This document shows, one piece after another, positions 38,288 through 45,332 of a stretch of DNA of 64,000 nt. A program made the position numbers and the translations under genes. Position 1 is the first letter of the stretch, and each line of letters opens with the position of its first letter. The stretch spans positions 64,001-128,000 of IMG/VR virus record IMGVR_UViG_3300037424_000564; one strand, 5' to 3'. The stretch comes from a virus. Lineage: Duplodnaviria; Caudoviricetes. The notes beneath the pieces are model-generated. The model had not been told where the DNA came from. It saw nothing but the letters and a program-made list of their open reading frames with translations, and made no database searches.

Positions 38288-39670
38288 TTACTGAATACCT
38301 TTTTCAGTGTTTACTATGACTTCTTCAAAAGTGATAGTTCTAACAATAGGAATATTATTATAATCATCAAGTTTGAATACTTCTTTGAGAGCAATAACTT
38401 CATTACCTACTTCATCTAGTCTACAAGTAGTAAGACCTTCGTTAGTTTCAATGAGAGTTAATCTACCTTTTTTGCTATTTTTACCGGGAGCAATTTTGAA
38501 CACATCTTGCCATTCTCCATCAATAAGAATAGCACAACATTTCATTGCAAATCCAAAGGTATCACGGTTAGAATGTTGTAGTAGTGCGCCACCCATACCA
38601 AATCCAACATTATCAGCAGCAAATCCTTTCCATTTGAGAAGAGATAGGATTTCTTCAATAGAATCACGATTGATTCCATCGCCTTGAATAACTCTAACAC
38701 AACTAGGAAGAACTTTATATCCTTTGCTATTAATAGTGAAACCAAAATGTTTCATTAGGATTTCAACACAACGAGCAACGGTTTGTGCTGGATCACCAGA
38801 GTCAGGACGAATGACCAGAGTGCCGCCCATATTAATTACTTCTTCTTTTAGTTCAGTTCCCCACATTTCACAGGCATTGAAAATATTGTAACTATCAGAT
38901 ACACATGCTACAATATTCCCCGGCCCACCATATTGCTGAAGCATATTGCGATATGCTTCGACTTCTTTATCCTGACCCCAAGATGTGATTGTGCTGTGTT
39001 CAGATGCTGGAATGCTAAAACCAGCCATAGCACAATTATAGTATTCATTAGCATACAGAATACCTTCAACAGTATCACTTCCCATGAAGTTGACAAGGTG
39101 AGCAGATCCACCAATTCCAGCAGATTCACTAGAACTTACGCCCCTTGCACCAAAATCATGAAGTTTGAACATAACTTGATCTTGATCATCAGAAGTCAGT
39201 TCCAGATACTTCTTGATTGTTTGCTTACAATCATAGGAAATAGTGGCAACAGAAGAAGGATACCAAATAGCACGTAGTAGTGCAGTTTCAAGGAAACTAG
39301 CAATCCAGAAACATTTTGGATCTGTACATTCGATAGTAAGGAGGACATTACTATTACGAAGAACAGTACCTTCTGGTACAGCTTTGATAATTACTGGCAT
39401 AAAGCCATTATATGTTTTAAGAATATATTCCCATCCTTCACGATTGAAGGGTTCCCCATGACTAGCAAAAAAGATAGCGGCTTGATCAATATCTTTTTGC
39501 GTGATGGGGTTTAGAAGATGGTCTTTGATGAAAATCTGAAGACCATAAAATAGTAGATGACTTCCGGCTCTTGCCTCAATATAAGACATCATTCCTTGGG
39601 TCTTAGGAGGGTATTGTTTCCAGTGACTACTTTTATAGCTATCACTTTTGAGAATTAGATTGTTGACCAT
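38288..39670 (-). CDS. nadV: nicotinamide phosphoribosyltransferase
   Basis: DSYKSSH, LHDFGARG, IPASEHS, ACVSDSY, IRPDSGDP, QGDG, FGMGG. Confidence 0.95.
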   Translation of the reverse strand: MVNNLILKSDSYKSSHWKQYPPKTQGMMSYIEARAGSHLLFYGLQIFIKDHLLNPITQKDIDQAAIFFASHGEPFNREGWEYILKTYNGFMPVIIKAVPEGTVLRNSNVLLTIECTDPKCFWIASFLETALLRAIWYPSSVATISYDCKQTIKKYLELTSDDQDQVMFKLHDFGARGVSSSESAGIGGSAHLVNFMGSDTVEGILYANEYYNCAMAGFSIPASEHSTITSWGQDKEVEAYRNMLQQYGGPGNIVACVSDSYNIFNACEMWGTELKEEVINMGGTLVIRPDSGDPAQTVARCVEILMKHFGFTINSKGYKVLPSCVRVIQGDGINRDSIEEILSLLKWKGFAADNVGFGMGGALLQHSNRDTFGFAMKCCAILIDGEWQDVFKIAPGKNSKKGRLTLIETNEGLTTCRLDEVGNEVIALKEVFKLDDYNNIPIVRTITFEEVIVNTEKGIQ

Positions 39671-39814
39671 TTAAATGCACTCCTTTTTATTGTCTTCTTC
39701 AACAATTAGGCTAAGTTGGCCGCAAGCAGCACCTGCATTGATTTCAGCCTCAGTAGCAATAGCAGTAGCAAAATCGAAACCAGCTTCTTTGAGTTGTTCT
39801 TGTACAGTTTTCAT
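39671..39814 (-). CDS. 47-aa peptide equal to the C-terminal helix-strand-AACGQL segment of RlmN/Cfr enzymes
   Basis: Translated by hand: MKTVQEQLKEAGFDFATAIATEAEINAGAACGQLSLIVEEDNKKECI; RBS GAAAGGAAGTGAT; TAA directly followed by the nadV ATG. Confidence 0.85.
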   Translation of the reverse strand: MKTVQEQLKEAGFDFATAIATEAEINAGAACGQLSLIVEEDNKKECI

Positions 39815-39888: not shown

Positions 39889-40083
39889 TCAATTATGGTC
39901 TACTACCTTAATGAAGATAGTTTTAGTGAAGGACTGTTGACCGTTAGGATCAACATATCTTGGTTGATGAATCGCAGTAAACTCATATGTTCCATCAACC
40001 AAAGCAACGAATTCGACAATAAGATCCCGGTTATCAACCCTAAATTGATCACATACCATCTGAGCAACAACTGAGTTTTTCAT
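39889..40083 (-). CDS. small hypothetical protein
   Basis: 64 aa, AAGGAG RBS, TTGACA-17-TATTCT promoter at about 40100-40132. Confidence 0.65.
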   Translation of the reverse strand: MKNSVVAQMVCDQFRVDNRDLIVEFVALVDGTYEFTAIHQPRYVDPNGQQSFTKTIFIKVVDHN

Positions 40084-40149
40084 ATATCTCCTTGTTTAAA
40101 TAGAATACGATAATTTTAGTTTTATGTCAATTAAAAAATTCAATTCCAT

Positions 40150-41061
40150 TTATATGATAATTTCTCCACCAAATCCAGTTCGAAGGTAGGAACCATCAAA
40201 CACCAAGTTTGATTCATTTCCTTTAGCAAAATCACTATTATATCTAGCATAAATTTTAACTAAACTGTCACCATCTTTAGGATTGAAGACATAGTTTCTG
40301 CATTCACAACTACCTTTATTATTCCATGTTTGGTAGTGTAAGATATTTTCTTTATTGGATAAATCAATATCACGAAAGTCAATATGATTATCAGTACAAT
40401 AATCATTAACTTTCATTAGTGTAACAAATCCAACATCACGAACACCGACAGATGCAGACCATTCCAGATATTTACACATTTCTTCATAAGAGTCAATATA
40501 ACCTTTAACTAAATTACAAGAAAAATGAATTTTGTGTTTATTGTGAAGATTATTCAATTCATTATTTGTGGGAATATTAATGAACGAATTGATGCCAAAT
40601 ATTTCTGAATTTTTACGTTCATTATAATGATGTCGGGACAAAGCAACACTATCAATTTCATCCATATCCATTAATTCACTAATATTGTAACCATTAGTAT
40701 TAGCCACAATAAATGATTTTGGACTAACTTCTTTTGTTTTGATTAGGATAGATTTGAAGTTATCAATATCCAGAGAAAGTTCACCACCAGTAAAACTGAT
40801 TTTATTGATGATAATTTTTTTCTGTAATTCTGACATAACATAATAAAATTTATGCAAATCAAATTCTGTATTTTCCTGACTACAAAACTCACAGAATTTA
40901 CATTTCGCCTGACACTTTTCAGTTACTTTTACGTAGATATTTACATAAGGATCTTTGACATGCCATAGATCATTGCAAAGATTCTTCTGACAATGATAAT
41001 CCTTTGTCATGATTGTTTTATTAAAAATATCGATTTTCATAATAGTCCTCTTAATTAACAA
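40150..41061 (-). CDS. radical SAM protein
   Basis: CQAKCKFC, SFTGGE, NTNG, ALSRHH; C-terminal CECR. Confidence 0.85.
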   Translation of the reverse strand: MLIKRTIMKIDIFNKTIMTKDYHCQKNLCNDLWHVKDPYVNIYVKVTEKCQAKCKFCEFCSQENTEFDLHKFYYVMSELQKKIIINKISFTGGELSLDIDNFKSILIKTKEVSPKSFIVANTNGYNISELMDMDEIDSVALSRHHYNERKNSEIFGINSFINIPTNNELNNLHNKHKIHFSCNLVKGYIDSYEEMCKYLEWSASVGVRDVGFVTLMKVNDYCTDNHIDFRDIDLSNKENILHYQTWNNKGSCECRNYVFNPKDGDSLVKIYARYNSDFAKGNESNLVFDGSYLRTGFGGEIII

Positions 41062-41342
41062 CCACCAGTTCTACTTCCAGAATATCCTCTAGAACAAGGA
41101 TCTACGGTAGTAGGTTTGTTCTTGGTTTTTACATTTGATGCATCTTGCTCTACTTTGACGTGAAGAACAATATCAAACATAGCAAATACAATATTTAGAG
41201 CATCTTTAGAAATAATTGTAGACATTTCAGTAGATGTACAGATATCCATAAAAAGATCATTGATTTTTGTTGTCGGAACACCAGAGGCAACAATTTTCTT
41301 ACGCATACCGATTAGGAATAGAACTTCATCTTTAAGTGCCAT
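41055..41342 (-). CDS. small protein with Cys/Gly/Ser-rich C-terminal tail (RiPP-precursor-like)
   Basis: 95 aa ending TVDPCSRGYSGSRTGGC; overlaps the start of the radical SAM gene. Confidence 0.6.
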   Translation of the reverse strand: MALKDEVLFLIGMRKKIVASGVPTTKINDLFMDICTSTEMSTIISKDALNIVFAMFDIVLHVKVEQDASNVKTKNKPTTVDPCSRGYSGSRTGGC

Positions 41343-41429: not shown

Positions 41430-41711
41430 TCATAATAACTCTTCTTTCTTTTTAAAATATTGTTCCTTTGTAAGAATTATACAATTCCACCCTTTATAAG
41501 ATTCTCTTAATCCCTTTGCTACATTTTTTAAAAATTGTGGTGTTTTAATTCCTAATTCTTTACATTTTTTAACAAAATCACCACAAAAAATTATTTCTTC
41601 ACCAGTAGGAGTTATTATAATATAATAACCTACATTATTAGCACTTTCACCTATAATCCCTTTATGCGAATTGCTCATTTTTTTCTTTACATCATCTGAT
41701 AACTTTTTCAA
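41430..41711 (-). pseudogene. homing endonuclease remnant (NUMOD3-like DNA-binding part only)
   Basis: KKKMSNSHKG NUMOD3-like motif and YIIITPTGEEI...YKGW C-terminal module; TTG start, no catalytic domain. Confidence 0.55.
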
Positions 41712-41713
41712 TA

Positions 41714-42496
41714 TCAGACTAGATTATTACCTTTTATAATCCCTTCACCTAAGTTATTAGATTCACTAATAGAATTTAAATTTATAGGGCTAATTTTTAT
41801 GAAAAAATAATCAGGATCAAAATATTTACGAAGTTTATTTATATCGAAATCACAGTAATCAACGAGAGTTAAATTAACTGTAGTTTTGAGATTACTCTTA
41901 GTACGAATCTGGCCGAGTTCTTCAATACTCATGAGATTATTGATAGGAATCAATTCATGCCGCCGATCTTCATCAAGAGAGTGAAGACTGATTTGAAGGG
42001 TAATATTTCCTTCAATCCAAGAGAAGTCAGAATCACGAATACCAACAGTAGAAACGTAGTGGTGAACATTAGGATATGCTTCTGAAAGTTGATTAATAGC
42101 ATATTTTACATTTTCGATATTTAGAAATGGTTCACCCATTCGTGTCCAGTTAATTTTGAATTCTTCCGAATATGAAGGATGAATATGAGAGTTTTTATCA
42201 ACAACAAAAAAAACTTGATCAAACATTTCATTTGGAGTAAGATTTCTCCAACCTTTCATTTGACCAGTTGCACAGAATTTGCAGCCAACAGGACAACCAC
42301 TCATAGTCGAAACACCAACCATCCAACGTTCAGACCGACTTCCGATATCTTTGGAGTAAAGAGCATTAGTATTATTAGGGCAGTTCTTAGTATAGAATGG
42401 AAGAAATGTATCAGTAGTTTCAATCAACATCCCATCTTCAAGTTGAAGACAATGAACAGATCCATTAGTAAATTTACGATTACGAAGTTCTTTCAT
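41714..42496 (-). CDS. RlmN/Cfr-like radical SAM methylase lacking its C-terminal segment
   Basis: IET, VSTMSGCPVGCKFCATG, RNLTPNEMFDQV, RMGEPFLN, VSTVG, LQISLHS, IKISPIN; stops before the AACGQL motif. Confidence 0.85.
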   Translation of the reverse strand: MKELRNRKFTNGSVHCLQLEDGMLIETTDTFLPFYTKNCPNNTNALYSKDIGSRSERWMVGVSTMSGCPVGCKFCATGQMKGWRNLTPNEMFDQVFFVVDKNSHIHPSYSEEFKINWTRMGEPFLNIENVKYAINQLSEAYPNVHHYVSTVGIRDSDFSWIEGNITLQISLHSLDEDRRHELIPINNLMSIEELGQIRTKSNLKTTVNLTLVDYCDFDINKLRKYFDPDYFFIKISPINLNSISESNNLGEGIIKGNNLV

Positions 42497-44291: not shown

Positions 44292-45332
44292 TTAAATACC
44301 CAACATATCCTTAATGATAAAATAATGGTCTTCAAACATATTTTCAGCAGTTAGTTCAGAAATAGGCAACCATACTGCTTTAGCCGCATCATCAGATCCT
44401 TTGATACGTGCTTTGATATTACTAGGAGGCAATTCAATTAAAAAAGCATGAGTTAGAATTCTTCCTCTTGTAGATCTATATGGATCGTCATACACACCTT
44501 TTTTTGTGATATATTTGCGAAGAATTGAAACTGGAATTTTGATCTTAGTTTCTTCATTCAATTCTCGAAGCATTCCATCTTCAAGTTGTTCATCTGTATC
44601 TAGAAATCCACCCGGCATTGCCCAAAGACCTTTTCCCGGTACATTCTTTCGTTGAATTAGAAGAATATGATCATTTTGAGTAACAATAGCATCAGTAGTT
44701 ATAAAATTACAAGGATATGGTGCAGATTCCCAAGCTTTCTTGTATTTTTTAATATAATCATGTTCTTCTTTGAGAATAAGCCAATTAGAATCAAGCATTC
44801 TAAATCTTCCCATAGTTTCTAACACATTTATTGGAACAACGCCATATAATTCAAAAAGTCTATCATGGGAATCAAAAAGAATTTCTCTGATATCAGTTGA
44901 GTGAATATGATTAATGGTTTCATCGAACCCAACTGGTTCAATATAATCCCAATCTTTGAAAAAATCAATATAAAAACTAGTTTTATCATTTTTGTTTCCA
45001 GTGATGCAAATAGAAACATCATCAGGATCATTACCATCTTGTTGAATCATAGAATCAACAATGCTTTGAGTATTCATTACCCAACGCGAATTCTCTTTAA
45101 TATCTATAAGAGATCCAAACATAATTCTATCGGAATTATATGTTTTACTAATCATTGCTTCACGATAATTAATATCGAATGGATTTTTTGAACTTAAAGG
45201 TCTATTTGCAGATCCAAATAGAACAATAACTTTATCTGCTACATTCAACAGATTATCAATGATTGCTTTGTGATTATTGTGAAACCCCTGAAATCGTCCG
45301 ATAATTATACCATATTGATATTTCTTTGACAT
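44292..45332 (-). CDS. nadM: bifunctional NMN adenylyltransferase / Nudix hydrolase
   Basis: IGRFQGFHNNH (HxxH), KNPF, STDIR, Nudix box GGFLDTDEQLEDGMLRELNEETK, GSDDA. Confidence 0.93.
   Translation of the reverse strand: MSKKYQYGIIIGRFQGFHNNHKAIIDNLLNVADKVIVLFGSANRPLSSKNPFDINYREAMISKTYNSDRIMFGSLIDIKENSRWVMNTQSIVDSMIQQDGNDPDDVSICITGNKNDKTSFYIDFFKDWDYIEPVGFDETINHIHSTDIREILFDSHDRLFELYGVVPINVLETMGRFRMLDSNWLILKEEHDYIKKYKKAWESAPYPCNFITTDAIVTQNDHILLIQRKNVPGKGLWAMPGGFLDTDEQLEDGMLRELNEETKIKIPVSILRKYITKKGVYDDPYRSTRGRILTHAFLIELPPSNIKARIKGSDDAAKAVWLPISELTAENMFEDHYFIIKDMLGI

Follow-up and report, generated by a model that had tools for sequence, protein, structure and literature searches.

In a 64,000-nucleotide (nt) stretch of viral DNA (positions 64,001 to 128,000 of IMG/VR record IMGVR_UViG_3300037424_000564; hereafter the window), a small gene for a 95-residue protein that ends in cysteine adjoins the gene of a radical S-adenosylmethionine (SAM) enzyme, denoted rSAM-2, and this pairing recurs in 34 of 35 non-redundant phage loci. 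We lean towards the view that the small protein and rSAM-2 are a substrate–enzyme pair in which the tail of the small protein becomes modified at or near its terminal Cys. The record is a complete virus genome of 205,056 bp, and the phage is T4-like as judged from T4-type genes within the window, which encode topoisomerase II, a gp6-like baseplate wedge protein, DNA polymerase, an RnlA-like RNA ligase and NrdA. All genes around the pair lie on the minus strand, and local G+C content is ~30%. The two members of the pair are the following open reading frames (ORFs).

41055-41342, minus strand: ORF of the small protein, 95 amino acids (aa).
40150-41061, minus strand: longest ORF of rSAM-2, the second radical SAM gene of the locus; the probable gene is 40150-41040.

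An earlier note, made from the letters of this DNA, had described a 95-aa ORF with a terminal C-x11-C next to a radical SAM ORF, and both are present; the tail reads DPCSRGYSGSRTGGC. An AAGGAG ribosome-binding site at 41355-41350 precedes the ATG of the small gene by 7 nt. The earlier note also had this gene overlap the start of the enzyme gene, an apparent overlap of 7 nt that arises because the longest ORF, opening with TTG at 41061, was taken. The ribosome-binding site for rSAM-2 supports a later start: AAGAGGA at 41052-41046 lies 5 nt before an ATG at 41040, the database gene call (P0001) is 296 aa long, and aligned relatives start at the same MKI.. position. Most likely, rSAM-2 starts at ATG 41040, is 296 aa long and follows the stop of the small gene by 14 nt, whereas the extension at 41041-41061 (minus strand) is probably untranslated. 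Compared with the relative L003, the small gene has a ratio of non-synonymous to synonymous substitution rates (dN/dS) of 0.27, and rSAM-2 and two further genes of the locus, rSAM-1 and C-pep, which are described below, each have 0.11. All four are therefore real coding genes, and both members of the pair are under purifying selection.

The survey of the pairing covered the neighbourhoods of nine homologues and 36 further viral loci, with hidden Markov models for four proteins. Duplicate removal left 37 loci, of which L041 (bacterial operon type) and L043 (broken enzyme gene) were set aside, giving 35. A small protein ending in Cys is encoded within about 0.7 kb of an intact enzyme gene in all of these except L025, whose small protein ends in Cys-Ser. 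The earlier note had named absence of tail conservation, or of co-occurrence with the enzymes, among the outcomes that would refute a peptide-modification locus; the survey returned the opposite. In most loci, the small gene lies directly upstream of rSAM-2, at distances ranging from a short overlap to a few tens of nt, the exceptions being L029, where it is 660 nt upstream, and L034, where it is found just downstream on the opposite strand. Enzymes as little as ~35% identical still show the pairing, which extends over T4-like, jumbo and mega-phage contigs.

The terminal Cys itself is close to universal. It is present in 46 of the 47 unique small proteins found adjoining the enzyme in the locus survey and in all 118 newly listed family members from a profile search of a protein collection, in which 162 proteins were found; combined, the partner ends in Cys in 164 of 165 sequences. 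A search with the small protein without a word index gave six homologues, all of them ending in Cys and four with a nearly identical tail. Among the other ORFs of 40-150 aa in the same loci, a terminal Cys occurs in ~2% (an estimate from 59/930, mostly family members). A chance frame, or a remnant of an insertion that split a neighbouring methylase gene, would account for the lack of any Pfam, PHROGs or NCBIfam match for the 95-aa ORF. Against this stand a strong ribosome-binding site, the dN/dS of 0.27 and >100 distinct homologues of the same architecture, and the methylase split is ancestral, a crAss-like phage having both parts side by side. Conservation already refutes such an origin, to which we assign hardly any probability.

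An AlphaFold2 model of the small protein, run on a 32-sequence alignment, contains a head (residues 1-57) of four helices (3-19, 24-35, 38-43 and 46-55) with a predicted local distance difference test (pLDDT) score >90, in keeping with the helical N-terminal region surmised before. Beyond the head, the K/T-rich linker and the tail are disordered, residues 62-77 having pLDDT <50. Mean column identity in the family alignment (A2) is 19%, and the terminal Cys is the sole invariant column; across the family, the folded head and the Cys-bearing tail are conserved and the linker between them is hypervariable. In composition, the last 16 residues contain 19% Ser, 17% Gly, 11% Cys and 10% Arg, as against 8%, 4%, 1% and 4% in the rest. 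A Tyr or Phe is found within the last 12 residues of 37 of the 47 surveyed small proteins and an Arg or Lys within the last six of 42, while the residue preceding the terminal Cys varies (G, R, S, H or P). Searches for known relatives yielded no family in Pfam, PHROGs or NCBIfam and only a noise-level CARF match in PADLOC (E 0.0066); the Protein Data Bank (PDB) contained no similar fold at E <= 0.001, and the ESM Atlas gave no usable feature match, only weak, short helical ones.

The tails also limit what reaction could be common to all members. The earlier note had singled out a DPC...C tail; its terminal Cys proved near-universal, whereas roughly every second member lacks the cysteine of DPC; a D-P-C-type motif, located 9-13 residues ahead of the terminal Cys, occurs in about half of the 47. 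Eight of the 47 carry the terminal Cys and no second tail Cys, so that neither a Cys-to-Cys reaction nor one dependent on DPC can be universal. Exactly two Cys within the last 25 residues are nevertheless found in 117 of the 118 members from the profile search, and in the locus-survey tails the second Cys stands 9-13 residues before the terminal one. Such regular cysteine pairs would also suit a non-substrate accessory, whose tail might ligate an Fe-S cluster or deliver one to rSAM-2, or which might act as a regulator; the phage encodes no fewer than five radical SAM proteins, all in need of clusters. We regard such an accessory as very unlikely: single-Cys tails do not fit it, four extra cysteines of the enzyme suffice for a cluster and are conserved where the small protein is absent, and multi-copy genes with a hypervariable linker would be unusual for a cluster carrier. 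Multiple copies do occur, L004 containing three tandem small-protein paralogues with different tails and L006 and L030 two each. Such tandem copies are typical of substrates and not of enzyme subunits, and they fit the substrate–enzyme reading.

The enzyme belongs to the radical SAM superfamily by its Pfam PF04055 match (29.7 bits compared with a cut-off of 29.5), a Fer4_12 match and its barrel fold. Its motifs comprise CxxxCxxC at C43/C47/C50, GGE at 85-87 and SRHH at 135-138. In an alignment of 46 sequences (A1), C43, C47, C50, G85-G86-E87, S135, H137, C175-N176-L177, C17, C245, C247 and Y264 are invariant, and H138 and R136 are kept in at least 90%. The four extra cysteines, C17, C175, C245 and C247, are invariant in a bacterial sister group as well and probably fit an intrinsic second Fe-S cluster. 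The AlphaFold model (pLDDT 92, predicted template modelling score 0.90) has MoaA as its nearest fold over the whole length (template modelling score 0.6-0.69, identity 12-21%), followed by matches to the core only, namely SuiB, BlsE, EpeE/YydG, viperin, CteB, SkfB and anSME. All named NCBIfam families score far below their cut-offs, the top one being HxsC with 33 bits versus 268, and PHROGs holds no family for the protein. A large protein collection contains 328 homologues at E <= 0.001, nearly all of 285-315 aa; they come from metagenomes, and many are encoded on contigs of 100-735 kb. Among deposited phage records, only four unannotated megaphage records, and no record of a cultured phage, carry rSAM-2. 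The enzyme represents a new MoaA/twitch-like family.

Several known identities were considered for the two proteins and rejected. The earlier note had compared the enzyme to sactipeptide and ranthipeptide maturases, a comparison that did not survive: rSAM-2 has no Pfam SPASM match, its four extra Cys are spread over residues 17-247 in place of a seven-Cys motif, and StsB and PapB-type families score at noise. No PqqD-like recognition element of RiPPs (peptides made by the ribosome and modified after translation) was found in rSAM-2, the small protein or a neighbouring 64-aa ORF, and there is no further conserved neighbour gene. MoaA itself was dismissed (TIGR02666, 25 bits versus 284; no moa genes nearby), as was prokaryotic viperin (NF038283, 29 bits versus 180 and covering the N-terminal core only; PADLOC pVip, E 1e-7 over residues 35-172). 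For an activase of the PflA/NrdG type, the NrdG score was 18 bits versus 126, and no PflA appeared among the top 50 fold matches. A glycyl-radical protein with its activase was discarded as well, G-[YF]-S not being present in all tails (for example, ..GRSSSSSISRC and ..STVRNGC). Likewise, a sulfur carrier akin to ThiS/MoaD does not agree with the small protein, the model of which is all-helical and not a beta-grasp, and which has no C-terminal Gly-Gly and varied residues before the Cys.

The genes, with their conservation and pairing, the layout of the small protein and the fold class of the enzyme are shown; binding of the two proteins, the tail as substrate, the chemistry and any role in infection are inferred, and the course of events that we propose is the following. 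The four-helix head would dock on rSAM-2, and the flexible linker would thread the Gly/Ser/Arg-rich tail into the active site. There, rSAM-2 would cleave SAM at the CxxxCxxC cluster, and the resulting 5'-deoxyadenosyl radical would modify the tail at or beside the terminal Cys, with assistance from a second Fe-S cluster, probably held by C17, C175, C245 and C247. One candidate reaction is a thioether or other cross-link with the terminal Cys; another is oxidative chemistry at its alpha or beta carbon, such as decarboxylation. The universal terminal position of the Cys suggests that a free carboxylate or the chain end matters. For many members, ring formation by a cross-link is suggested by the frequent second Cys, which stands at a fixed distance; this could not be universal, as some tails lack that Cys. 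The fold neighbours of rSAM-2 include the peptide maturases SuiB, EpeE/YydG, CteB, SkfB and anSME, which supports the pair, and the locus has the general layout of a RiPP precursor, with a small gene beside that of a maturase and a recognition part followed by a separate core. On this evidence, drawn from sequence and model, we consider modification of the small protein moderately probable.

A number of observations weigh against this reading. The single-Cys tails described above are one, and the lack of an RRE (RiPP recognition element) or SPASM domain in rSAM-2 is another; moreover, its best overall fold match, MoaA, acts on a nucleotide. Enzymes from Bacteroidales and Lachnospiraceae, 32-37% identical to rSAM-2, are encoded in a different operon, in which no small Cys-ended protein was found. 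These sister enzymes keep all the catalytic positions and the extra cysteines, and the chemistry is thus not strictly dependent on the small-protein family. Finally, clustering of all ORFs within 4 kb across the 37 loci identified no conserved protease, exporter, immunity gene or third partner, so that the product would differ from classical secreted RiPPs. A complex prediction for rSAM-2 and the small protein with two 4Fe-4S clusters and SAM scored 0.04 relative to a mark of 0.32, which speaks neither for nor against the pair.

The sister operon (L092 4098-7162, L097 3181-7171 and others among L087-L104) encodes a 290-600-aa protein, the rSAM-2-like enzyme and a HemN/STM4012-like radical SAM protein; in L097, the first of these contains a tubulin-like GTPase stretch. 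Judging by this comparison, the small-protein partner is specific to the viral clade. Three loci from genome collections are of the viral type, on a 425-kb contig binned as an archaeon, a 1.3-kb Desulfosporosinus contig and a contig of an Eubacteriales metagenome-assembled genome.

The invariance of the terminal residue, with the rest of the tail free to drift, would also be expected of a scaffold whose terminal Cys is turned into a small molecule and later released, as with pearlin/TglA or mycofactocin; the end product would then be a metabolite and no modified protein. TglA is a documented case of a scaffold that has its Cys at the C terminus (PMC9016710). The pair is, however, not accompanied by any conserved peptidase or peptide-aminoacyl ligase, and many tails have a second Cys and, at fixed spacing, an aromatic residue, neither of which a pure scaffold needs. 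A role as scaffold is, in our estimate, decidedly unlikely.

The locus, a nest of genes with its flanking neighbours, contains besides the pair the following features, listed in transcription order after the more distant upstream gene.

44292-45332, further upstream: NMNAT-Nudix, named from its sequence and the Pfam matches of its homologue in L004.
41714-42496, minus strand: rSAM-1, an RlmN/Cfr-like radical SAM protein of 260 aa, first in transcription order.
41430-41711, minus strand: 93-aa ORF directly after rSAM-1, with a weak NUMOD3 match (Pfam E 0.019, below cut-off).
39889-40083, minus strand: 64-aa ORF with no family in Pfam, PHROGs or NCBIfam.
39671-39814, minus strand: ORF of C-pep, 47 aa, which carries the AACGQL motif of the RlmN C terminus.
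38288-39670, minus strand: NAMPT, last of the listed genes in the transcription direction.

The placement of the small gene between the two halves of a split methylase, as read in the earlier note, is borne out by rSAM-1 and C-pep; the 64-aa ORF is indeed a neighbour, without being part of the conserved core. Relative to the NCBIfam RlmN model, rSAM-1 scores E 1e-20, far below the cut-off. The match begins at about residue 100 of RlmN, the first ~55 residues of rSAM-1 having no RlmN counterpart, and the C-terminal Cys segment is missing. In the alignment to RlmN from the PDB, the position of the resolving Cys is occupied by Gly, and this Gly, at -7 from the first cluster Cys, is found in 23 of 23 unique rSAM-1 homologues; near it, a Cys occurs three residues later in five homologues, one later in one and one earlier in one. 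The AACGQL peptide is 40-64 aa long across loci and is a separate gene in every locus with rSAM-1 except L011. In L011 (5995-6987), C-pep is fused in frame to the C terminus of rSAM-2, giving a protein of 330 aa, and not to rSAM-1, an arrangement that hints at all four proteins working as one complex. The methylase split is ancestral, its parts being adjacent in L008 and in a crAss-like phage. The latter is Kehishuvirus sp. 'tikkala' (OQ198717.1; L112 3301-4223), a cultured crAss-like Bacteroides phage in which rSAM-1 is followed by a 43-aa AACGQL peptide; there is no rSAM-2, and both genes are annotated as hypothetical.

Co-occurrence with both radical SAM families had been proposed as a check in the earlier note; it holds for rSAM-2 in 34 of 35 loci, and rSAM-1 and C-pep accompany the pair in 21 of the 35 and are both absent from 14. 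In five large viral contigs with the pair only (40-89% complete), rSAM-1 was nowhere found. Because the pair occurs alone and rSAM-1 with C-pep also occurs alone, the two are independent two-gene modules, each pairing a radical SAM enzyme with a Cys-bearing mini-protein. Where both are present, the order is rSAM-1, small gene, rSAM-2, C-pep in compact form (L007 and L009), rSAM-1, C-pep, small gene, rSAM-2 (L008) or rSAM-2, small gene, C-pep, endonuclease, rSAM-1 (L101). That the modules stay together through rearrangement argues for a functional link. By comparison of gene orders, the arrangement in the window is an expanded form of the compact order, and the split of the methylase is not recent. 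A link between tail type and the presence of rSAM-1 was rejected, tails being alike with and without it. The earlier idea of a multi-enzyme peptide-modification locus is thus partly supported, by the conserved pair, the precursor-like layout and the tandem copies; several enzymes are not obligatory, since the pair also stands alone.

In the present phage, rSAM-1 and C-pep would probably belong to the same pathway as the pair, acting on the same product or as a physical complex. Some relatives contain extra enzymes: a third, MoaA-like radical SAM enzyme (259-264 aa) and a SAM methyltransferase of 140-148 aa are encoded in L001 (3229-4571) and L006 (1491-3376), between the rSAM-1 and small-protein genes. 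Modification clusters whose tailoring enzymes vary show this pattern. A bolder proposal would make the four genes one radical tagging machine, in which each enzyme uses its Cys mini-protein as a consumable arm, and a phage peptide or protein becomes covalently linked to a host macromolecule, such as rRNA or tRNA, or the arms to each other. With no resolving Cys, rSAM-1 could leave C-pep covalently on its target, and the helical protein could serve rSAM-2 in the same way. We rate such a machine as quite unlikely; if it were true, phages would have a novel way of taking over the host or countering its defences.

Genes of nicotinamide adenine dinucleotide (NAD) salvage recur beside the module, even in distant loci without rSAM-1, and include NAMPT, NadR-type NMNAT, PnuC, Nudix and NAD kinase; flanking examples are 38288-39670 and 44292-45332 in the window and 3803-5575 in L022. 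Other loci contain genes of RNA repair or nucleotide metabolism, namely RtcB, RNA ligase, Tpt1, Thg1 and phosphoribosyl pyrophosphate synthetase. Such a context may stem from a functional link or from an auxiliary or counter-defence region that the genes share. The earlier note had suggested an anti-defence effector, and, judged from gene neighbourhood alone, the module may have an anti-defence role.

The recurrence of nucleotide, NAD and RNA-repair genes also bears on a different function for the small protein, that of a stoichiometric co-substrate or carrier whose terminal Cys would give persulfide sulfur, a hydrogen atom or a thiyl to a reaction of rSAM-2 on a nucleotide, an NAD-related compound or RNA. 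An analogous case would be C-pep, which supplies a catalytic Cys in trans to rSAM-1, the other radical SAM enzyme of the nest, whose catalytic Cys resides on a separate mini-protein. A carrier would also agree with MoaA as best fold and viperin among the next, both of which act on nucleotides, with the single terminal Cys alone being universal, and with bacterial sister enzymes that work without the small protein. By contrast, tandem paralogues with divergent tails better fit a substrate, many tails contain a second conserved motif (D-P-C or G-[YF]-S), and ORF clustering identified no sulfurtransferase, rhodanese or desulfurase conserved beside the pair. We consider a carrier function credible but on the whole unlikely, and continue to favour the tail of the small protein as the substrate of rSAM-2.

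The 93-aa ORF is an insertion within the nest and not part of its core, relatives having no counterpart at that position, and its weak match suggests that it is possibly a homing-endonuclease remnant; endonuclease-like genes adjoin the module in L004 and L101. Among fully read loci, none but the close relative L003 (3496-3678) has a homologue of the 64-aa ORF, and there it does not adjoin the enzyme; the ORF is also absent from the gene clusters common to at least four loci, which places it outside the conserved core. As a partner of the pair, it was rejected, its conservation stopping at close relatives. Upstream of the module, a 154-aa protein encoded at 42865-43329 matches phrog_3668 ('hydrolase') with E 4e-33, and its gene has a short DNA match in common with Vibrio phage 11895-B1. 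The phage has five radical SAM proteins above the Pfam cut-off and one weak sixth, with further sites at 1824-2882 of the window and, elsewhere in the genome, at 30039, 46084 and 169649; five are many for a 205-kb phage.

Bacteria use radical SAM peptide-modification clusters to make antibiotics and cofactors; to our knowledge, no such cluster is known in virulent phages, nor is one described in the papers searched. Literature searches on phage RiPPs, C-terminal Cys and NAD salvage with radical SAM, and on split RlmN in phages, returned no description of the module, and the enzyme family and its partner family are both undescribed. T4-like, jumbo and mega phages from a wide range of environments carry the module, which has hundreds of members. 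Were the two proteins indeed enzyme and substrate, the pair would represent a new radical SAM reaction on a protein C terminus, and large lytic phages would make a modified protein during infection. The NAD-salvage and RNA-repair neighbours, together with the interlock with an rSAM-1 unable to finish normal methyl transfer, make a role in counter-defence or takeover worth testing, and the split methylase of Kehishuvirus sp. 'tikkala' is a possible experimental entry point.

Among characterized systems, the SPASM/twitch maturases (AlbA, CteB, SkfB, PapB, SuiB and YydG/EpeE) resemble the pair in having an upstream gene for a Cys-bearing precursor, leader and core parts and sometimes several precursor copies. 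They differ in that rSAM-2 has only 296 aa, with neither the seven-Cys SPASM motif nor an RRE, and in that no protease or exporter accompanies it; furthermore, in the phage partner 57 residues form a folded head and the terminal Cys is universal, and the carriers are virulent T4-like, jumbo and mega phages. MoaA, the GTP 3',8-cyclase, provides the best whole-length fold and likewise has a C-terminal sheet with extra Cys that suggests a second cluster. Identity to rSAM-2 is, however, 12-21%, the pattern of extra Cys is another, no molybdopterin genes lie nearby, and the phage enzyme has a small-protein partner. With the class A methylases RlmN and Cfr, rSAM-1 shares the RlmN core and C-pep the AACGQL methyl-carrier motif; in the phage, these parts are two genes, the resolving Cys is replaced by Gly, and they are nested around the rSAM-2 pair.

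Two systems act on the end of a peptide chain. In the mycofactocin pathway, the radical SAM enzyme MftC acts on the very C-terminal residue of the short ribosomal peptide MftA. MftC has SPASM clusters and requires the RRE protein MftB, and MftA ends in Tyr and not in Cys; the NCBIfam scan of rSAM-2 listed no mycofactocin family. In the 3-thiaglutamate (pearlin) pathway, the carrier peptide TglA has a C-terminal Cys as the residue worked on (PMC9016710). There, a tRNA-dependent ligase attaches the Cys, and its modification falls to a non-haem iron enzyme, whereas in the phage pair the terminal Cys is encoded in the genome and the partner is a radical SAM enzyme.

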